From NCBI RefSeq assembly GCF_000023965.1, contig NC_013202.1, positions 540,001-572,000 on the forward strand: DNA of 32,000 bases, written 5' to 3'. The stretch's first letter is position 1. Every line of letters begins with the position of its first letter. The stretch comes from Halomicrobium mukohataei DSM 12286 (GTDB lineage Archaea; Halobacteriota; Halobacteria; Halobacteriales; Haloarculaceae). Positions 5,885 through 16,267 of the stretch are shown piece by piece. Under the pieces are notes generated by a model. The model saw only the letters and a list, made by a program, of their open reading frames with translations, was not told where the DNA came from and made no database searches. The position numbers were made by a program, and so were the translations under genes.

Positions 5885-7087
5885 CTACTCCGGAACGTCC
5901 CCGATGGCGACGAGGCCGTCGCTGCTGCTGGTCGCGAAGAACACGGCCCCGTCGGCGAGGATCGGCGGGATCGAGGGCGTGTGGAAGTCGTCCATCACGT
6001 AGTCCCAGCGCGCCTCGCCCGTCTCGCGGTCGAACGCGGTGATCGTCCGGTCGGTGTACTCGCCGCGGTCGGCCATCGCGACCACGGTCTCGGTCCCGAC
6101 CGAGCAGCCGGCGGTGTACACCCACTCGTCGTACTCCCACCGCGTCGTTCCGTCGGCGATGTCGACGGCGGTGAGTCCGTCGTCGCTGGTCACGAACGCC
6201 GTAGTGCCGTCGGTAGCGACCGTCGCGTCGAAGGTCGTCCCGTCGTAGTCGAACGAGTGGCGTTCGCCGCGGCGGTCGCCCGTCTCCCGGTCGTGGACGA
6301 CGAGCGTTCGGTCGTCGACGACGAGGACGCCGCGGTCGGTCACGACCGGCGCGCTCGGGGACCGACCGTCGAGCGAGCGCGTCCAGCGGACCGATCCGTC
6401 GGCGAGCGCGAGCGCGGCGAGAGTGGCCGCCCCGTCGACGCTGCCGACGGCGTAGACCGTCCCGTCGGCGATGGCGGGTGTGACCCGCTGGCCCGGCAGT
6501 TCGGGCGCTTTCCAGCGCCGTTGGCCGTCTGTCGCTCCGAATGCCTTGAGGCCGTCGGCGTACGGGACGACGATCGTCCCCGTCGAGCGGTCGACGGCGA
6601 GCAGTTCCGCGAACGACGTTTCGAGCCCCTCGACGGAGCGCTCCCAGTCGACGCCTCCCCCCTGTCGGTCGAGGGCGACGAGTCCCGAGTCGTGTGCCAC
6701 GACGAACCGGCCGTCGACGAGGGCGCGCCCGTGACGACCCTCCCTGTCGAGCGTCGTGCGCCACCGTTCGGTGCCGTCCTGTGCGTCGAGCGCGATGGCG
6801 CTGCCGTCGTGGCTGGGGTCGAAGTTCGTGGTGTAGATCGTCCCGTCGGCGATAACTGGGTCCCAGCGCGTGAACGCCGCCGATGTCCAGGCGTGGCTCG
6901 CCCGCGAGGGCGCGGCAACGTCCGGGGCGAACGTGTTGGCGGCGTCGGCTCCGTGCTGTGTCCAGGAGCCGCCGGGGACCTCTGGCAGTGGCGTGTTCCC
7001 CCCGCTCGTCCACGGAAGCGAGGACAGACACCCAGAGAGGGCCGCCGTTCCGGCACAGGTCGTCGTCAGGAACGTCCGTCGATCCAT
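5885..7087 (-). CDS. PQQ-like beta-propeller repeat protein, secreted or lipid-anchored (400 aa)
   Basis: Start chosen at MDRRTFLTTTCAGTAALSGCLS, a twin-arginine signal plus a lipobox-like Cys. Repeated ..DG.VY....DG.L.A.D..TG...W motifs. Confidence 0.8.
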   Translation of the reverse strand: MDRRTFLTTTCAGTAALSGCLSSLPWTSGGNTPLPEVPGGSWTQHGADAANTFAPDVAAPSRASHAWTSAAFTRWDPVIADGTIYTTNFDPSHDGSAIALDAQDGTERWRTTLDREGRHGRALVDGRFVVAHDSGLVALDRQGGGVDWERSVEGLETSFAELLAVDRSTGTIVVPYADGLKAFGATDGQRRWKAPELPGQRVTPAIADGTVYAVGSVDGAATLAALALADGSVRWTRSLDGRSPSAPVVTDRGVLVVDDRTLVVHDRETGDRRGERHSFDYDGTTFDATVATDGTTAFVTSDDGLTAVDIADGTTRWEYDEWVYTAGCSVGTETVVAMADRGEYTDRTITAFDRETGEARWDYVMDDFHTPSIPPILADGAVFFATSSSDGLVAIGDVPE

Positions 7088-9256: not shown

Positions 9257-10291
9257 ATGTCAGACACCAACCGCGTCTTCCTGCTTGCCGAGCGACCCGA
9301 CGGTCGACCCGACGAGGACACCTTCGAGCTGGCAGAGCGCGACCTACCGACGCCAGGCCCCGGCGAAGCGCTCGTCCGAACGCTGTACCTCTCGGTCGAC
9401 CCCTACATGCGCGGTCGGATGGACGCCCGCGAGTCCTACGCCGATCCGTGGGGCGTCGGCGATCCGATGGAGGCCGCCGTCGTCGGGGAAGTCGTCGAGT
9501 CCAACGGCGCGGGTCTCGAAGCGGGGACCGTCGTCACGGGTGAACTCGAATGGGCCGACTACGCAACCGCGCCGGGAACGGAGCTGTACCCCATCGACCC
9601 CGAGCTGGCCCCGATCTCGACGGCGCTGGGCGTGCTGGGCATGCCCGGCCGCACGGCGTACTTCGGGACCAAGGAGATCGCACAGCCGACCGCGGGCGAC
9701 ACGTTCGTCGTCAGCGGCGCGGCGGGCGCGGTCGGCTCGGTCGCCGGCCAGATCGCGGGACTCCAGGGCGCTGACGTGGTCGGCTTCGCCGGCTCCGACG
9801 AGAAGGTCCAGTTCCTCGAAGACGAACTCGGCTTCGACGCCGGCATCAACTACAAGACGACCGACGACTACGGGGCGGCACTCGACGAGGCGGCCCCCGG
9901 CGGCGTCGACGCCTACTTCGACAACGTCGGCGGCCCGATCACCGACGCCGTCTTCACCCGGCTCAACGTCGACGCCCGCGTCGCCGTCTGTGGACAGATC
10001 TCCCAGTACAACGCGACCGAGCTCCCGACCGGGCCGCGAAAGCTGGCGACGCTGGTCGAGACGCGCGCCACCGTCGAAGGGTTCCTCGTCGGCGACTACC
10101 AGCCGCGCTTCGAGGCCGCGACCCGCCAGCTTGGCGAGTGGGTCCAGCGCGGCCAGGTCCAGTACCGCGAGACCGTCACCGAGGGCCTGGAGAACGCCCC
10201 CGACGCCTTCCTCGGCCTCTTCGAGGGCGAGAACATCGGCAAGCAGCTCGTGAAGGTCGCCGAGCGGGACGTAAGGTCACGAGGGCTGTGA
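9257..10291 (+). CDS. NADP-dependent oxidoreductase, MDR superfamily (zeta-crystallin/YncB-like, 344 aa)
   Basis: TLYLSVDPYMRGRM and VVSGAAGAVGSVAGQIA (nucleotide-binding GxGxxG variant), with a C-terminal ...FEGENIGKQLVKV. Confidence 0.85.
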   Translation: MSDTNRVFLLAERPDGRPDEDTFELAERDLPTPGPGEALVRTLYLSVDPYMRGRMDARESYADPWGVGDPMEAAVVGEVVESNGAGLEAGTVVTGELEWADYATAPGTELYPIDPELAPISTALGVLGMPGRTAYFGTKEIAQPTAGDTFVVSGAAGAVGSVAGQIAGLQGADVVGFAGSDEKVQFLEDELGFDAGINYKTTDDYGAALDEAAPGGVDAYFDNVGGPITDAVFTRLNVDARVAVCGQISQYNATELPTGPRKLATLVETRATVEGFLVGDYQPRFEAATRQLGEWVQRGQVQYRETVTEGLENAPDAFLGLFEGENIGKQLVKVAERDVRSRGL

Positions 10292-10380
10292 CTCGCTGAA
10301 AAATGTCGCAAATGTCGGAGTAAGAGGGTTCAGATCGGATTCTAATTGAGTTGCAGGGGACTACGCGACAGTGTTGCTGC

Positions 10381-10464
10381 TCATACTGTCGGCTGTAACT
10401 GTTTCAAGATATTCGCGACCACAGGGTCGCAACATTCTGTACAGACTGACAGCCGGCAGTATCA
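10381..10464. repeat. Long-hairpin palindromic element, S-type copy 2
   Basis: catactgtcggctgta (10382-10397) pairs with gacagccggcagtatca (10448-10464). Central stem gcgacc / ggtcgc. Internal homology to copy 1 (ttcaagatattcgc versus ttcagatagtcgc). Confidence 0.8.
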
Positions 10465-10489
10465 TTCGATCGCTCGCAAAAGTGGGAAC

Positions 10490-10497
10490 CATTAAAA
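10490..10497 (+). promoter_or_regulatory. TATA-like box upstream of the island cassette
   Basis: cattaaaa lies 30-37 nt upstream of the ATG at 10527. Confidence 0.35.
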
Positions 10498-10526
10498 CCC
10501 TCTCATACGGATAGTCAGAGAAGACA

Positions 10527-11456
10527 ATGCCCCAAGAAGATCCGGAGTTCGGTGAGCCAGAGTTCTTGGGGTGGTTACTATTGAAGCGGCTGAAAGAACA
10601 GAGCAACGATCAGATTTCGAGATCGAAGTTTCTCAAACTCTGTTGTATCGCTGATCGTCGCCTTATCGAGTCACGTGGTTACGAGGTCGGTCTCCCTCGC
10701 TACTGGTATATGTACGGAGAACTCGCAAACGAACACGAGTTCTCGAAGCGATTTTATAATGCGCCGCTTGCCATCGGCTGGGATGGTCAGCAGTATCTCC
10801 CGAAGGAACTGCAGGTCGAAGCATTCGACGTATCTGAAGAAGGTCTCGAATCGATTCCGGATGCCGCCAGATGGACGGTTCGAGAATTCGGACGCAAGAA
10901 CGTCGAAGAGATCAAACAGTATCAGTATGAGAAGCACGCAGAAAACGAGTTTATTCGAAAATACAGCGAACTTCGATGGCTCCTGAGTACGATCGATCTC
11001 GGGAGACAGGAACGACTGGAGAACTACAGTAGCGGTGGAGAATCGAACGAGGAGTACCTCAAGCGGCAACTCGATGAAATGATGGCCACATATCCGGACG
11101 GTGAGGCCCGTTACGACGATTTGAAGACGCTCTATCTCCGGTGGGACGATACAGTTCGTCTCATGGTGGACCACTCCGTCGAGTACAGCCGAATTGCGGA
11201 GTTCCTCGACGATTTTATCCGGACACTCAGTAAGGCTGTACTTCGATTCGCATACAACCAGAACATAACTGACGAACGACTCGAAGACTGGGAGGAAGAT
11301 GCAGTCGAAGAGCGAGAAAAGTTCACGACTCATCTCACGACCATACGGTCGGAACTCCTTCGAGGCCGGTCACGAAGCACAGAGCTCGATCAGGTCTCGG
11401 ACGCGTATTCACAGACCATCGACGAACAGATTGAGCGGCTCCTTGCCCGGGAATAG
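10527..11456 (+). CDS. Hypothetical acidic protein (309 aa), first gene of the low-GC cassette. The N-terminal region may resemble a Panacea/DUF4065 domain.
   Basis: Long ATG-started ORF in low-GC DNA with acidic composition. Its stop TAG (11454-11456) abuts the next ATG. The motif SKFLKLCCIADRRLIESRGYEVGLPRYWYMYGEL is loosely like the SocA/Panacea signature. Confidence 0.7.
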   Translation: MPQEDPEFGEPEFLGWLLLKRLKEQSNDQISRSKFLKLCCIADRRLIESRGYEVGLPRYWYMYGELANEHEFSKRFYNAPLAIGWDGQQYLPKELQVEAFDVSEEGLESIPDAARWTVREFGRKNVEEIKQYQYEKHAENEFIRKYSELRWLLSTIDLGRQERLENYSSGGESNEEYLKRQLDEMMATYPDGEARYDDLKTLYLRWDDTVRLMVDHSVEYSRIAEFLDDFIRTLSKAVLRFAYNQNITDERLEDWEEDAVEEREKFTTHLTTIRSELLRGRSRSTELDQVSDAYSQTIDEQIERLLARE

Positions 11457-12119
11457 ATGGCGGACGCATCGTTTCTGGATACCGGTGTCGTACTGGGATT
11501 CTGTTTTCGCGATGACTCACATCATCATCGCTGCCGGGAGTATCTCGATGATCACGACTTCGTGCTGTTCGTTTCCGACCACGTAGAATCGGAGTATCTG
11601 AATAGAGAACCGAGTCTTGCGCAGGAGGTTGCAAACGGCATCTTCGATCACATCGATCGACTACACGATTCGGAATTCGAGGGACAGCTTGATTCGATGG
11701 ACACGTCCCGGATTCGCCAGAATCTGGTCTCAGGTAATAACCCTGCTGGGACAACACTACATACGTTCTACAGCGATGAAGTGCCGAATTTTATCCAAAT
11801 TACCGACCTGACTGAGCGACTCCGTGACCTCGCACGGGACATCGAACAGATCGCGATTGAGAACAGAGAGACCCTCATGACGAAAGTGGAAGTGTGGGAA
11901 CGAGATAACGAATATGCCGAGATCGACGACAAGCTCTCGGAAATCCCGTGGGACGACCGCCGTATCTGTCTCGATGCACATGATGTTGCCGAAGTAACAG
12001 GTAAACCGACAGAACTGGCCACCACGAATCCGACAGACCTGGTTGACCACGGCTACCGAACGGTAATTCTCGAACGAACGTCCCTCGAAAATGTAGTGTC
12101 GCTCGCAGTTCGGTCGTAA
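11457..12119 (+). CDS. PIN-like domain protein with a large internal insertion (220 aa)
   Basis: Acidic residues occur in canonical PIN order: FLDTGVV (D8), VESEY (E44/E46), CLDAHDVA (D173) and TTNPTDLV (D194). The gap between the second and third is about 125 aa. Confidence 0.6.
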   Translation: MADASFLDTGVVLGFCFRDDSHHHRCREYLDDHDFVLFVSDHVESEYLNREPSLAQEVANGIFDHIDRLHDSEFEGQLDSMDTSRIRQNLVSGNNPAGTTLHTFYSDEVPNFIQITDLTERLRDLARDIEQIAIENRETLMTKVEVWERDNEYAEIDDKLSEIPWDDRRICLDAHDVAEVTGKPTELATTNPTDLVDHGYRTVILERTSLENVVSLAVRS

Positions 12120-12135
12120 CCATTACACTCGGAAC

Positions 12136-12150
12136 GGTCCCGTCGGGACC
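12136..12150 (+). terminator. Short GC hairpin after the cassette
   Basis: ggtccc gtc gggacc, starting 17 nt after the TAA stop, followed by ctcttt. Confidence 0.25.
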
Positions 12151-12186: not shown

Positions 12187-12771
12187 ATGTTGCAAGGAGC
12201 GACGCCGGAGCCGGCTCCCCAGCCGTCGACGGTGGCGATTATCGACGAGTTCGTCGACGGGATCCTCGCGTCGATTCCGCGGCTGCTGTCGGGACTGCTC
12301 TTTCTCGTGCTCGCATACCTGACGATCAAGCTCGTGCTGGCGGTCGTCCGGTCGGTCGTCGATCGGCTCTACCGGGACGAGGAGCAGCTCATCGTCGACC
12401 TCGTGGTCACCGTCGTCGGGATCTTCCTGTGGTTCGGCGCGACGCTGGGGCTCCTGAAGGTCGTGGGACTCGGCGACGTGGCCGCCAGCCTGGGCACCGC
12501 CAGCGGGTTCATCGGACTGGGCGTCGCGTTCGCGCTCAAGGAGATGATCGCCGACACGGTCGCGGGGGTGTACCTCCTGCAAGACGAGGACTTCTCGGAG
12601 GGGGACCGCGTCGAGACCGCGTCGGTGACGGGCCGGCTCGTGAGTATCGATCTCCGGAAGACCCGGATCGAGACCGACGATGGGAACCTCGTGGTCGTCG
12701 CCAACCGCGACGTCGAGAAGCGCTGGACGCGCCACGCTCGGGCCGACGAGGCCGCCGAAACGGACGCCTGA
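12187..12771 (+). CDS. Small mechanosensitive (MscS-family) channel protein (194 aa)
   Basis: Transmembrane helices followed by IGLGVAFALKEMIADTVAGVYLLQDEDFSEGDRVE...GRLVSIDLRKTRIETDDGNLVVVAN, the typical MscS beta-domain. Confidence 0.8.
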   Translation: MLQGATPEPAPQPSTVAIIDEFVDGILASIPRLLSGLLFLVLAYLTIKLVLAVVRSVVDRLYRDEEQLIVDLVVTVVGIFLWFGATLGLLKVVGLGDVAASLGTASGFIGLGVAFALKEMIADTVAGVYLLQDEDFSEGDRVETASVTGRLVSIDLRKTRIETDDGNLVVVANRDVEKRWTRHARADEAAETDA

Positions 12772-12825: not shown

Positions 12826-13512
12826 CTACTCGAAGTGCGATTCGGCGTCGGCTTTCGCCCGATCGACGACGAACGCCTCGGCCTGGGTCATCGCCCGCAG
12901 CGCCTCGTCGGTGTAGTCGACCGTGATCGACGGGAGCGCGCGTGCCAGCCCGCCCAGCAGGTCGCCGGGGTCGATGTCGATGGTCAGTGCGTAGGCCTCG
13001 GGCGAGGCGTGCAGCGGCTCGGTGAAGGCAAACTGGGCGTCGATCAGGTCGGTCGTCGCCTCCCAGTCGTAGGCGGTCGCCGCGGCAGCCCACAGCGAGT
13101 CAGCGTCCGCGGCGACCAGCGGCGCGACGGCATCGCCCATGCGTCGCTGGCGAGCCAGCAGCGTCTCGCGGAGCTCGCTTTTGCGGTCCGGTGGGACGTC
13201 GGACCGAAGTGCGTCCCAGTAGAGGTCGCGGGCCAGAATCTCGTCGGCGAAGGCCTCGAAGTCGTCGTCACTGGCGGCATAGGAGAGGACCGCGTCGAAC
13301 TGGTGGAGGATCGCGTCTCGGTAGGACTGCAGTTCTGGCTGGACGATCTTCCGGTCGACCGTTTCGCTGTTCGAGAGGAGGCGATCGATCACCGCCCCCT
13401 CCGGACCGGTGGCGCTGCGCAGCGCCCGCGAAATGCTGAAGGCGTCGCTGGTCTCGCTGGCCAGTCCGTTGACGTACCGCTCGAACCCGTCCCTGACGGC
13501 AGCGCGTGTCAC
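12826..13512 (-). CDS. Hypothetical conserved-looking acidic protein (228 aa), GTG start
   Basis: ORF with haloarchaeal composition. I recognise no motif. Confidence 0.55.
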   Translation of the reverse strand: MTRAAVRDGFERYVNGLASETSDAFSISRALRSATGPEGAVIDRLLSNSETVDRKIVQPELQSYRDAILHQFDAVLSYAASDDDFEAFADEILARDLYWDALRSDVPPDRKSELRETLLARQRRMGDAVAPLVAADADSLWAAAATAYDWEATTDLIDAQFAFTEPLHASPEAYALTIDIDPGDLLGGLARALPSITVDYTDEALRAMTQAEAFVVDRAKADAESHFE

Positions 13513-13591: not shown

Positions 13592-14047
13592 ATGGCTGAA
13601 GGATTATCGACCGAGCGGTCGGACGCGATCGCCGACGCGGGCGAGCGAGAACTCGTCGTCGGCGGCGACCGTCCCATCCGGATCAGCACGGGCCACCGGA
13701 TCATGCACCACGACGGGAAGTGCAGTCGGCCCCACGGCCACAACTACGAGGTGACGGTCCGAGTGACCGGAGCGCTCACGGCGGAGGGGTGGGTCGTCGA
13801 CAAGGGCGACGTGACCGACGCCATCGACGAGTGGGACCACCGCTTCCTCGTCGAAGCGGGCGATCCCCTCGTCGACGCCTTCGAGCGCAGCGGCGACGGC
13901 GACGCGCTGGTCGTGCTCGATCACCCGCCGACGGCGGAAGTGATGGCGATCGTCCTCGAAGAGCGACTCGCGGAATCACTTCCGGACACCGTCAGCGACG
14001 TGGGAGTGACCGTCCGCGAGACGGGCGAACTCGCAGCGGGGCCGTAG
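13592..14047 (+). CDS. queD: 6-carboxy-5,6,7,8-tetrahydropterin synthase
   Basis: HRIMHHDGKCSRPHGHNYEV is the PTPS/QueD zinc and catalytic motif. 151 aa. Confidence 0.85.
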   Translation: MAEGLSTERSDAIADAGERELVVGGDRPIRISTGHRIMHHDGKCSRPHGHNYEVTVRVTGALTAEGWVVDKGDVTDAIDEWDHRFLVEAGDPLVDAFERSGDGDALVVLDHPPTAEVMAIVLEERLAESLPDTVSDVGVTVRETGELAAGP

Positions 14048-14824
14048 ATGCCCGTCGACGCCGACCCGGTCGCGGAGCGAGCGGCCGAGACGCCGCCAGA
14101 GGCCGACGCCCTACCGATCAACGAGCTGTTTCACTCGCTGCAGGGCGAGGGGAAGCTGGCGGGAGTCCCGTCGGTGTTCGTCCGGACGAGTGGCTGTAAC
14201 CTCCGGTGTTGGTTCTGTGATTCCTATCACACCTCCTGGGAGCCCAGCCACGCCTGGCTGACGATCGACGAGATCGTCGCCGAGATCGAGGGCTACGACG
14301 CCGACCACGTCGTGGTGACCGGCGGCGAGCCGCTGATCCACGAGGAGACCGTCGACCTGCTGGAGCGACTCGACGAGCGAGGGTACCACACCACCGTCGA
14401 GACCAACGGGACCGTCGCCGTCGACGCGCCGATCGACCTGGCGAGTGTCAGTCCGAAGCTCGCGTCCTCGACGCCGACGCCCGAGCGGGACCCGACCGGC
14501 GAGGGCGACTGGGAGCAACGCCACGAGCAGCGCCGCCTCGACCACGAGGCGCTGGCGACGCTCGTCGAGCGCTACCCGACCCAGCTGAAGTTCGTCGTCA
14601 CCGGTCCCGACGACGTGGCGGAGATCGACCGGACGGTCGAGGAGCTTCGAGAGCGAACCGAGACGACGATCGACGACGCAGACGTGCTGTTGATGCCCGA
14701 GGGGCAGACGCGTTCGGATCTCGACGAGACGCGCGGGGTCGTGGCCGACCTCGCGCTGGAACACGGCTACCGATACACGCCGCGGCTCCACGTCGACCTC
14801 TGGAACGACGCCCCGGGCACCTGA
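14048..14824 (+). CDS. queE: 7-carboxy-7-deazaguanine synthase (radical SAM)
   Basis: ELFHSLQGEGKLAGVPSVFVRTSGCNLRCWFCDS is the QueE CxxxCxxC-type cluster motif. Its ATG follows the queD TAG directly. Confidence 0.85.
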   Translation: MPVDADPVAERAAETPPEADALPINELFHSLQGEGKLAGVPSVFVRTSGCNLRCWFCDSYHTSWEPSHAWLTIDEIVAEIEGYDADHVVVTGGEPLIHEETVDLLERLDERGYHTTVETNGTVAVDAPIDLASVSPKLASSTPTPERDPTGEGDWEQRHEQRRLDHEALATLVERYPTQLKFVVTGPDDVAEIDRTVEELRERTETTIDDADVLLMPEGQTRSDLDETRGVVADLALEHGYRYTPRLHVDLWNDAPGT

Positions 14825-14832
14825 GACACATC

Positions 14833-15459
14833 ATGACCGACGAGACAACGATGGAGGACGCGGCCGAGGCGACGAACGCCCCGGCCACAGTCCCCGACGG
14901 CGAGGGTATCGACTGGGAGAAAGCACAGGAAGGCACCCGCCTCCTGCTGGAATCGATAGGCGAGGACCCGACCGCGGACGGCCTCGAAGCCACCTGGCAG
15001 CGTCGGGTGCCCGCACTGTTCGAGACGTTCAGCGAGGCCAACCGCGAGGCCGAGAAGCCGACGATGCGGACCTTCGAAGCCGATCAGGAGGGACTGGTCG
15101 TCAAGACCGGTATCCCGGTGTATAGCCTCTGTGAGCACCACCTGCTGCCCTACCACGGGACGGCACACGTCGCCTACCGACCGGACGAGCGGGTCGTCGG
15201 CCTCTCGAAGCTGGTCCGGTACGTCCGCTGGCAGGGCCGCAAGCCCTCGATGCAGGAACGCCTGACGCGCGACATCGCCGACGGACTGGCGGCAGAACTG
15301 GACGCGGCGGCCGTGCTGGTCGAGATCGAGGCCACCCACATGTGCGAGGCCATGCGCGGCGTCGAGACCGCGACCACGACGACGACCCGCTCGGTCGTCG
15401 GATCGCCGACGACGACCGAACGCGAACGCTTCACCGACGCCGTCAAGAAACATGAGTGA
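14833..15459 (+). CDS. folE: GTP cyclohydrolase I (type IA)
   Basis: PVYSLCEHHLLPYHGTAHVAYRPDERVVGLSKLVRYV and ATHMCEAMRGV motifs. Confidence 0.85.
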   Translation: MTDETTMEDAAEATNAPATVPDGEGIDWEKAQEGTRLLLESIGEDPTADGLEATWQRRVPALFETFSEANREAEKPTMRTFEADQEGLVVKTGIPVYSLCEHHLLPYHGTAHVAYRPDERVVGLSKLVRYVRWQGRKPSMQERLTRDIADGLAAELDAAAVLVEIEATHMCEAMRGVETATTTTTRSVVGSPTTTERERFTDAVKKHE

Positions 15460-16267
15460 CGAACGATCCGCCGCCGCCGACGCACCGAGCGGCGACGACC
15501 AGTCGGCCGCAGACGGCCCGACCACCGACGCCCCCCAGACGACTGACGACCCCGATTCGGCGGACGACTCGCCGACGGCCGACAGCGCCGTGATCCTCGC
15601 CTCCGGGGGGATGGACAGCGCGACAGCGGCATACGAGGCCGTGGATCGGGGGTACGAGGCGCTGTACCTCCTGCACACGAGCTACGGCCAGGCGACCGAA
15701 GAGACCGAGCGCGCGTGTGCCCAGGCGCTCGCCGACCACGTCGACGCGGCCGACTTCCTCCACGTCGAGACCGGCCACCTCGCACAGATCGGGGCCTCCT
15801 CGCTGACCGACGAAGAGATGGCCGTAGACGACGCCGATCTGGACAGCGACGAGATCCCGACCTCATACGTCCCCTTCCGGAACGCGAACCTCCTGTCGAT
15901 GGCCGTCTCCTACGCCGAGGCCAACGACTGCTCGGCGATCTTCATCGGCGCACACAGCGAGGACTTCTCGGGGTATCCCGACTGCCGCCCGCAGTTCTTC
16001 GACGCCTTCCAGCAGGTGATCGACGCCGGGACGAAACCCGAGACCGAGATCGAACTGGTCGCGCCCTTCGTCGAGTGGTCCAAGACCGACATCGCCGAGC
16101 GCGGCCTCGAACTCGGGGTGCCCTACGAGGACACCTGGAGTTGCTACCGCGAGTCCCCGCCGGCCTGTGGCACCTGTGACGCCTGCGCCTTCCGGCTCCA
16201 GGCCTTCCAGAACCTCGGCGAGCGCGACCCCGTCGAGTACGCCGAGCGCCCCGACTACACGGAGTAG
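15452..16267 (+). CDS. queC: 7-cyano-7-deazaguanine synthase, with a possible 46-aa acidic N-terminal extension
   Basis: AVILASGGMDSATAAY (PP-loop) and a C-terminal CYRESPPACGTCDACAFR zinc motif. The ATG at 15452 overlaps the folE stop (atgagtga). An in-frame GTG at 15590 is an alternative start. Confidence 0.85.
   Translation: MSDERSAAADAPSGDDQSAADGPTTDAPQTTDDPDSADDSPTADSAVILASGGMDSATAAYEAVDRGYEALYLLHTSYGQATEETERACAQALADHVDAADFLHVETGHLAQIGASSLTDEEMAVDDADLDSDEIPTSYVPFRNANLLSMAVSYAEANDCSAIFIGAHSEDFSGYPDCRPQFFDAFQQVIDAGTKPETEIELVAPFVEWSKTDIAERGLELGVPYEDTWSCYRESPPACGTCDACAFRLQAFQNLGERDPVEYAERPDYTE

Follow-up and report, generated by a model that had tools for sequence, protein, structure and literature searches.

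The closest described systems to the locus studied here are the PanAT toxin-antitoxin (TA) pairs, in which a toxin-like gene is preceded by an antitoxin-like gene and tightly coupled to it (PMC8832971, PMC10440598). PanA antitoxins with an appended Phd-C, PAD1, or ZBD domain neutralize through that domain, and a sensor role for the Panacea domain has been favored by the NetFlax authors (PMC10440598). A pair made of a PanA and a PIN-like protein (cluster T38/pT43) has been predicted in Actinobacteria (Dataset S1 of Kurata et al. 2022, PMC8832971). In VapBC systems, for which we took the Shigella VapC 5ECW, the Caulobacter VapBC1 5K8J, the Mycobacterium tuberculosis VapBC 5X3T, and NgVapBC1 (PMC13488343) as examples for comparison, a VapB of ~70 to 100 amino acids (aa) with a ribbon-helix-helix (RHH), AbrB, Phd, or helix-turn-helix (HTH) domain accompanies a PIN protein of ~130 aa. 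A PIN domain of the PIN_5 family is also found in HARP, a minimal RNase P evolutionarily linked to TA toxins, in which two inserted spike helices serve dimerization and tRNA binding (PMC8266387). Finally, according to PMC12839542, the backup effectors recruited by bacteriophage exclusion (BREX) and BREX-related (BR) loci include HEPN and Schlafen RNases and, more rarely, PIN RNases. One of these systems, Hma, also described as the DUF499-centered BR system, combines a DUF499 ATPase, a DUF1156 methyltransferase, and a helicase (PMC12839542, PMC11232893).

Here, we analyzed 32,000 nucleotides (nt) of Halomicrobium mukohataei DSM 12286 (NC_013202.1, positions 540,001 to 572,000), called the window below, in which two adjacent open reading frames, ORF1 (309 aa) and ORF2 (220 aa), form a cassette of low GC content. 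ORF2 is a PIN-fold protein carrying a large helical insertion, and ORF1 probably begins with a divergent Panacea-like domain. On balance, we favor the view that the two genes represent a self-contained mobile cassette of the PanAT-like TA or abortive-defense type. Where it could be checked by computation, the interpretation given in a preliminary description made from the sequence of the window was borne out. Its author knew of no described system with such a pairing. The pairing is less novel than that, given the PanA and PIN-like pair predicted in Actinobacteria; the PIN name of an ORF2 homologue in UniRef and the occurrence of PIN RNases in or beside BREX and BR loci are likewise already known. 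In the papers and libraries searched, we did not find described the ORF1 family with its apparently new C-terminal domain, the insertion-bearing PIN family, the seemingly obligate pairing of the two across haloarchaea and beyond, or the slot that they prefer within the Hma loci of haloarchaea.

The ORF1 stop codon (TAG, 11454-11456) immediately precedes the ORF2 ATG at 11457. The preliminary description had thus placed and sized both ORFs and their abutting junction correctly, and this arrangement is a general one. Of 49 distinct loci, 45 have a stop-to-start gap of −4 to +7 nt, and in 23 the two codons abut exactly (gap of 0 nt). It had also raised the question of whether the two genes co-occur elsewhere. 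At every locus with enough flanking DNA, about 50 distinct loci, ORF1 was found directly upstream of ORF2 and on the same strand. This adjacency persists down to 35% identity, at loci picked by ORF2 similarity alone, and on plasmids, and even the remote locus L055 keeps the pair (hidden Markov model [HMM] E values of 2.4e-46 and 9e-24). The pairwise identities of ORF1 and ORF2 were strongly correlated (r = 0.97 over 32 distinct pairs, a value reached by none of 2000 Mantel permutations), indicating that the pair is inherited as one unit. Unlike in PanAT systems, no partner swapping was seen across the ~50 loci, and ORF1 evolves as slowly as ORF2. Indeed, the median ratio of nonsynonymous to synonymous substitutions (dN/dS) was 0.086 for ORF1 and 0.098 for ORF2 over 34 informative locus pairs. 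Both are therefore real genes under purifying selection and not chance ORFs. An antisense ORF of 220 aa (10671..11333) was rejected as a gene and considered a by-product of ORF1, given the ORF1 dN/dS of 0.09.

A single locus on an AT-rich metagenomic contig (L053, 5155-6666) encodes a remote PIN-like relative of ORF2 (224 aa, 23% identity, with the motifs FFFDTNV, ICLDAHDLA, and VTSD), upstream of which an unrelated 197-residue helical protein takes the place of the ORF1 homologue. The flanking genes encode a 482-residue protein, in which GLRGLGKST is a Walker A-type motif, and a 660-residue protein that looks helicase-like by its motifs (Walker A-type GTGTGKS, DEAH). L053 may represent a partner exchange over a long evolutionary distance.

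We then considered the loci at which the pair has decayed. ORF1 stands alone at two of them, namely L015 (5938-6879), in a metagenome-assembled genome of the Halobacteriales, and L062 (5980-6909), on a Halorussus halophilus megaplasmid, where the orphan gene is no longer distinct by low GC content. A close ORF2 relative lacking ORF1 was not found among the examined loci. At L050 (1095-1478), ORF2 has lost residues ~52 to 135 in frame, that is, nearly its whole insertion, which leaves a PIN core of ~136 residues beside an intact ORF1, and at L012, both genes are damaged and fused. The orphan ORF1 copies and the L050 deletion fit the logic of an antitoxin-toxin pair. A 136-residue cluster (P0080), present on two contigs, is probably the same insertion-less variant as L050.

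The AlphaFold2 (AF2) model of ORF2 had a mean predicted local distance difference test (pLDDT) score of 89.9 and a predicted TM-score of 0.81. Its best Foldseek matches in the PDB were VapC structures: 5ecw_A (probability 0.98, target-normalized TM-score 0.66), 5k8j_B (0.95, TM-score 0.66), and 5x3t_B (0.91, TM-score 0.61). These were followed by the archaeal PIN domains 2fe1 and 1o4w. The E values were weak (0.13 to 0.5) because of the insertion. The ORF2 family comprises 98 homologue clusters, nearly all of ~220 aa, and UniRef already lists a homologue under the name "PIN domain-containing protein." Among 36 aligned full-length homologues, PF01850 was matched by 11 (best E value, 8.9e-7), PIN_12 by 6, and PIN_3 by 3, and a precomputed PF01850 assignment exists for three family members. 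After in silico deletion of residues 53 to 159, PF01850 was matched by 16 of 29 constructs. The window ORF2 gave nothing in a scan of NCBIfam and no match in PADLOC-DB v2.

Residue conservation was counted over 90 full-length homologues. The motifs from which the preliminary description had read four acidic PIN positions (D8 in FLDTGVV, E44/E46 in VESEY, D173 in CLDAHDVA, and D194 in TTNPTDLV) are all present. The putative catalytic acids D8 (90/90), E46 (84/90), D173 (84/90, plus four with glutamate), and D194 (89/90) are indeed conserved, while E44 is poorly kept (48/90) and has to be dropped from this set. T189, found in all 90, corresponds to the conserved PIN threonine. ORF2 hence shares with VapC the PIN fold, four acidic positions, and this threonine. 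Fold and acidic residues together establish ORF2 as a PIN-fold protein with a VapC-like core, and by extension it is a putative metal-dependent nuclease.

Besides T189, residues D167, C171, H175, H65, R123, and R127 are invariant (all 90/90), and C16, H22, H23, and C26 are nearly so. None of the seven invariant ones had been pointed out in the preliminary description. The cysteines and histidines of this set (C16, H22, H23, C26, H65, C171, and H175) distinguish ORF2 from VapC, for which they are atypical. They lie near the PIN acids in the sequence, and one helix carries D167, C171, and H175 at positions i, i+4, and i+8. The Cys/His residues could form a structural or catalytic metal site.

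ORF2 also differs from VapC in its length (220 versus ~130 aa), which reflects an insertion of ~90 to 110 residues that separates the second acidic position from the third. E46 and D173 are 127 residues apart, in good agreement with the ~125 residues given in the preliminary description, and the large helical insertion into a PIN fold that had been deduced from this spacing was confirmed by the AF2 model, the VapC matches, and the PF01850 matches of family members and insertion-deleted constructs. In the model, the insertion region consists of helices 41-70, 80-91, 98-108, and 115-143, the two long ones bracketing the two short ones. Mean column identity was 0.58 in the insertion and 0.66 in the PIN core, and the insertion holds the invariant H65, R123, and R127 as well as a conserved EGQLDSMD motif. 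This helical arm probably contributes to substrate recognition, oligomerization, or partner binding.

The arm brings HARP to mind, which, like ORF2, is a VapC-group PIN protein of ~200 to 220 aa that is interrupted by long protruding helices and occurs in archaea, including haloarchaea. The pair might be a nontoxic accessory RNA-processing enzyme. Its ORF2 arm, like the HARP spike helices (PMC8266387), would provide oligomerization and measuring of structured RNA, and ORF1 would be a stable structural or specificity subunit and no inhibitor. The two ~30-residue helices that bracket the insertion, the invariance of R123 and R127, the large size and order of ORF1, its constraint, which is as strong as that of ORF2, and a locus that tolerates a frameshifted ORF1 (L013, see below) all suit such an enzyme. 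However, the ORF2 insertion has four helices instead of two, and ORF2 is always paired with ORF1, whereas HARP stands alone. We rejected ORF2 as a HARP or PIN_5 protein, since no member of the family matched PIN_5 in Pfam and the HARP structure 8kd9_E was matched with a probability of only 0.12 (TM-scores of 0.28 and 0.31), behind the VapC structures. Furthermore, the patchy distribution of the cassette, with its low GC content and its presence on plasmids and in defense islands, is unlike that of a housekeeping function, and ORF1 persists alone but ORF2 never does. We thus regard an RNA-processing role as improbable.

ORF1 belongs to a family of 126 homologue clusters, nearly all of ~309 aa; the named sources of ORF1 and ORF2 homologue clusters are all Halobacteria, and most clusters are metagenomic. 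Its AF2 model (mean pLDDT of 84.1) shows two parts joined by a poorly modeled linker. The N-terminal part contains helices 10-25 and 32-50, a β-hairpin at residues 58 to 67 (PRYWYMYGEL), and three helices within residues 104 to 155. This order of secondary structure elements is compatible with that of Panacea (α1 to α7, with a β1-β2 hairpin after α2). The best PDB fold match of ORF1 was 7yk3_B, the C-terminal domain of DarG (probability 0.63, target-normalized TM-score 0.44), a domain homologous to DUF4065 (PMC13621843). In BFVD, ORF1 matched viral proteins of 110 to 160 residues over ~130 aligned columns, among them A0A1P8VV54 (probability 1.0, TM-score 0.53) and a phage protein annotated as SocA-like Panacea (probability 0.23, TM-score 0.53). 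The Foldseek E values behind this reading ranged from 0.06 to 4.

Distant relatives of ORF1 point in the same direction. When 1.84 billion representatives were searched exhaustively with a profile, 141 relatives were recovered, mostly full-length proteins of 270 to 350 aa together with shorter partial ones, and a third homologue search with a highly diverse alignment found no relatives beyond the known family. When 20 distant relatives were scanned individually against Pfam, P0348 matched PF13274 (SocA_Panacea) with an E value of 4.8e-4 (21.5 bits, profile positions 1 to 107 of 113) and P0323 with an E value of 0.24 (12.8 bits, positions 2 to 110 of 113), both below the threshold of 25.7 bits. 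In NCBIfam, SocA_antitoxin was the family with the most members matched in the extended ORF1 set (two, best E value 5.6e-4), and antitoxin_DarG was matched by one member. The ORF1 family motif F.K....L...L......dI.LP..WY..G(P)vv, in which W60 and G64 are invariant, is in register with the PF13274 matches. Like the window ORF1, the distant homologues that gave Panacea matches are followed by a coupled protein, in their case of ~230 residues, with PIN-like motifs (hFLDANI, SE.VENE, LVLDSEEVA, and VSLDKN) and a long insert between them.

On these five individually weak but concordant lines, we consider it quite likely that the N-terminal domain of ORF1 is a divergent Panacea-like domain. The loose resemblance to Panacea/DUF4065 that the preliminary description had seen in residues ~33 to 67, the segment that holds the family motif, is backed by several independent weak matches that agree with it in register, all of them below the curated thresholds. 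ORF1 would alternatively be unrelated to Panacea, its helix-helix-hairpin being that of a generic winged-helix DNA-binding autoregulator and the SocA, DarG, and Panacea matches being due to chance. All Panacea-type matches do fall below curated thresholds, PF13274 was matched by neither the window ORF1 nor any of 44 close relatives, and PDB sequence-profile searches with the ORF1 family and the extended ORF1 family gave no significant match. A phmmer search of the PDB with the Panacea-like region of P0348 gave only spurious apolipoprotein matches, and a comparison of the extended family with PHROGs gave none. On the other hand, two HMM libraries and two structure libraries independently returned the same family as best or near best, both Pfam matches span the whole 113-position profile in register with the invariant W60 and G64, and no HTH or winged-helix family was matched instead in Pfam. 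An ORF1 unrelated to Panacea therefore seems unlikely to us.

The Panacea-like part of ORF1 carries an extra domain, as some PanAs do. However, this C-terminal helical domain of ~135 residues has no known relative: neither Pfam, PDB profile, nor Foldseek searches gave a family or fold match, as the preliminary description had noted for the remainder of ORF1. It spans residues 174 to 308 in the model, was delimited by its helices, pLDDT blocks, and conservation, and contains two conserved motifs (LYLRWDDTVRL and FLDxFIxxLSK). Its final ~29 residues are of low conservation and low model confidence and are for this reason a candidate toxin-binding tail. By analogy with PanAs bearing appended neutralizing domains, the C-terminal domain or the tail would be the likelier neutralizer. 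ORF1 may resemble a PanA in its domain of helices and a β-hairpin, and its 309 aa and slow evolution set it apart from PanAs. It differs from VapB both in size, as had been pointed out before, and in fold: no RHH, AbrB, Phd, or HTH domain was found in it in Pfam or NCBIfam. ORF2, a 220-residue PIN protein with a large insertion, and the haloarchaeal host also set the cassette apart from PanAT pairs. In turn, the VapBC-like features of the cassette include an antitoxin-position gene that comes first, a coupled or overlapping junction, and a patchy, mobile distribution.

Several observations weigh against a TA-type reading of the pair. Each link of ORF1 to Panacea is below threshold when taken individually, and sequence searches of Pfam, NCBIfam, PADLOC, and the PDB with the window ORF1 and its 44 aligned relatives returned no meaningful match; in PADLOC-DB v2, the window ORF1 matched only HamA, at chance level (E value of 0.011). 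The window ORF2 matched PF01850 over residues 6 to 48 only (E value of 0.001, 20.1 bits, gathering threshold 23.6), and PDB sequence-profile searches with the ORF2 family and with an insertion-deleted profile gave no significant PIN match, the one relevant match being the VapC AF_1683 (E value of 1.4). Unlike typical small, labile, fast-evolving antitoxins, ORF1 is a large and well-folded protein, and the constraint on it is as strong as that on ORF2. At L013, on plasmid pB of Haloarcula sp. NS06, a 1-nt insertion in ORF1 (6600-6680, CGACTTCATGG compared to CGGCTCATGG in L007) causes a +1 frameshift at residue ~212, and ORF2 is intact. Either this is a sequencing error or ORF2 is tolerated there without full-length ORF1, and unless it is an error, L013 does not fit the logic of an antitoxin-toxin pair. 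Finally, of the predicted haloarchaeal VapCs tested in Natrinema gari, half were nontoxic.

The cassette is horizontally mobile and patchily distributed. A GTDB scan with the ORF1 family recovered 12 species genomes, all of Halobacteria and from many genera, and a metagenome scan with the ORF2 family recovered 37 loci. The GC content of the cassette was 0.45 to 0.58 across loci, usually lower than that of the flanking DNA. In the window, it drops to 0.49 to 0.55 across ~10250-12150, compared to 0.67 to 0.73 on either side. The islet has a GC content of about 52%, against 68 to 70% around it. The low GC content of the DNA and the acidity of both products, which the preliminary description had remarked on, were thus confirmed (isoelectric points of 4.76 for ORF1 and 4.48 for ORF2). 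It had also proposed to look at plasmids and haloviruses. A protein search placed ORF1 homologues on four haloarchaeal megaplasmids, and neither protein was matched in 50,697 phage records. A nucleotide search of plasmids gave no match to the cassette.

To delimit the mobile unit, we aligned 20 upstream regions. The sole upstream conservation was an element resembling a transcription factor B recognition element (BRE) and a TATA box (consensus GGGAAAAGTTAAGAAC; over the aligned regions, AG.G..AAA.GTTAA.AA..T..C), which finishes ~23 nt before the ATG and lies 23 to 46 nt 5' of ORF1 in the window. From known haloarchaeal promoter architecture, we infer that it acts as a promoter, and its proximity to the ATG suggests that the leader is very short or lacking. 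Past the ORF2 stop codon, no general conservation was seen among loci. Taken together, this indicates that the mobile unit consists of the promoter and the two genes, ~1.65 kb in total. A 5-nt inverted repeat around the TATA-like box of some loci (AGAGG-N13-CCTCT) is doubtful as an operator and was set aside, being neither consistently maintained nor compensated across loci.

In 14 loci (L004, L007-L010, L012, L013, L020-L024, L028, and L036), all of which belong to a clade 78 to 86% identical to the window pair, the cassette lies between the gene for a DUF499 ATPase, which is transcribed divergently, and that for a DUF1156 N6-methyltransferase, with an SNF2 helicase gene further along in L004 and L028. 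This is the arrangement of an Hma or DUF499-centered BR system, and the cassette sits there in a position from which backup effectors, PIN and HEPN nucleases among them, have been described. A two-gene unit of a PIN and a Panacea-like protein was not found by term searches of the main text of PMC12839542. Elsewhere, one copy adjoins an MmeI-type enzyme gene, one adjoins DUF4238 and HEPN_AbiV genes, one lies beside a gene for a HerA-like ATPase with a recombinase nearby, and one is part of an integrase-bearing element. Some copies, including that of the window, are found among housekeeping genes. The location in defense islands that the preliminary description had envisaged thus applies to many copies, the 14 in Hma or BR loci among them, but not to that of the window.

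The DUF499-DUF1156 slot varies across haloarchaeal Hma loci (e.g., L004, 1-16663) and collects several accessory cassettes. These comprise a 442-residue nuclease with a FokI cleavage domain and its own TATA-like promoter (full-length in seven loci and partial in an eighth, L023), a DUF262/GmrSD-like protein of 740 residues (5.5e-18 against 9jfl_B), a two-gene cassette with an AbiEii-like nucleotidyltransferase (weak match), and an IS1595 element. A conserved element, GTCAAGATTTAACG, lies ~30 nt 5' of the FokI-like nuclease gene (L004, 8740-8772) and, in L008, L009, L020, and L022, ~90 to 110 nt past the ORF2 stop codon. It is probably the TATA promoter of the nuclease gene, which would therefore not be cotranscribed with ORF1 and ORF2.

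These loci raise the question of whether the pair belongs to Hma or BR defense as a dedicated auxiliary arm and is not an autonomous addiction module. In such an arm, the sensor would be ORF1, responding to a phage product or to phage interference with the core system. ORF2 would serve as the backup suicidal RNase, and solitary copies such as that of the window would be remnants or escapees. The position of the cassette upstream of the helicase gene and between the DUF499 and DUF1156 genes in the window's own clade would be accounted for, as would the recruitment of PIN, HEPN, and Schlafen RNases in or next to BREX and BR core loci reported in PMC12839542, and the sensor role favored for Panacea in PMC10440598 would apply to ORF1. 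However, the cassette and the gene that follows it each have a promoter, that of the cassette being conserved. No Hma gene was found within 5 to 10 kb of the cassette in the window or in L005, L006, L011, L017, L018, L025, L044, L049, and L056-L059, and more divergent clades (35 to 70% identity) show no association with Hma. In addition, the same slot houses unrelated cassettes (FokI-like, DUF262, AbiE-like, and IS1595), as would an insertion hot spot. An auxiliary arm is thus conceivable, though we hold it to be distinctly less probable than a self-contained cassette that is found in Hma loci among many other contexts.

The features of the window are listed in Table 1. The islet of ~1.85 kb is bordered upstream by a gene for an NADP-dependent oxidoreductase (PF16884/PF00107), which ends at 10291, and downstream by a gene for an MscS-type channel (PF00924), which starts at 12187. 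Housekeeping genes, and no Hma gene, extend for 9 to 10 kb on both sides. At the borders of the islet, we found no tRNA gene, no convincing direct or inverted flanking repeats, and no Rfam match. A cluster of 7-deazaguanine (archaeosine/queuosine precursor) genes, co-directional with one another, occupies 13592-16267, 1.5 kb downstream of the islet. Between the MscS and QueD-like genes, the minus strand encodes a 228-residue acidic protein (12826-13512) without a Pfam match, which is also called as a gene in a related Halomicrobium genome (L001, 11370-12056).

Table 1. Coordinates of the cassette, its parts, and neighboring genes in the window
Feature	Position	Strand	Description
Low-GC islet	10292..12140	.	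~50-55% GC; composition profile
Promoter-like element	10481..10504	+	GGGAA (purine-rich, BRE-like), then TATA-like CATTAAAA
ORF1	10527..11456	+	309 aa; putative antitoxin or sensor partner
ORF1 N-terminal domain	10548..10991	+	Residues ~8-155; probably Panacea/DUF4065-like, divergent
ORF1 C-terminal helical domain	11043..11453	+	Residues ~173-309; helices, pLDDT blocks, conservation
ORF2	11457..12119	+	220 aa; PIN-domain protein, putative nuclease and toxin/effector
Helical insertion in PIN domain	11613..11885	+	Residues ~53-143; AF2 secondary structure, conservation
PTPS/QueD-like	13592-14047		Co-directional cluster
Radical-SAM QueE-like	14048-14824		Co-directional cluster
GTP cyclohydrolase I (FolE)	14833-15459		Co-directional cluster
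QueC	15452-16267		Co-directional cluster

We propose that the cassette would function as follows. A single BRE/TATA promoter would transcribe both genes, and the TAG/ATG junction would couple their translation. ORF2 would be a metal-dependent PIN endonuclease with a catalytic center formed by D8, E46, D173, and D194, and its helical arm would add contacts to the substrate, to other ORF2 subunits, or to the partner. ORF1, as a divergent PanA-type protein, would inactivate ORF2 by binding it; once a trigger frees ORF2, cellular RNA would be cleaved and growth would stop. Candidate triggers are loss of the cassette, infection, and inhibition of a neighboring defense system. The cassette would act as a solitary module in the window and occupy an accessory-effector slot of Hma or BR loci in its closest relatives.

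More speculatively, and with rather low probability, the cassette could be a sensor-effector fail-safe that has been recruited by haloarchaeal Hma and BR systems and also works alone. The Panacea-like domain would detect a viral cue or the inactivation of the neighboring restriction system, the family-specific C-terminal domain would release ORF2, and the HARP-like arm would dock a specific structured RNA (e.g., tRNA) for cleavage, so that infection is aborted. Within this scenario, the invariant arginines and the possible Cys/His metal site of ORF2 would serve RNA docking. If true, it would represent the first Panacea-type switch characterized in archaea and a new route to the substrate specificity of VapC-type proteins.

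Should ORF2 turn out to be nontoxic, the pair would represent an uncharacterized accessory RNA-processing complex. The TA-type reading, if correct, would mean that the "hyperpromiscuous" Panacea antitoxin domain reaches a haloarchaeal lineage that is invisible to current HMMs. The ORF1 family lies outside PF13274-based PanAT surveys, since the window ORF1 and its 44 close relatives miss this profile, and such surveys would then undercount systems of this kind. It would also add to the PIN toxins one of unusual architecture, with a conserved helical arm and extra invariant Cys, His, and Arg residues. Canonical haloarchaeal VapBCs have already been studied by tryptophan-inducible expression in Haloferax volcanii (PMC13488343), and the cassette would provide a small, genetically tractable candidate for a backup-effector layer of archaeal BR (Hma) systems.

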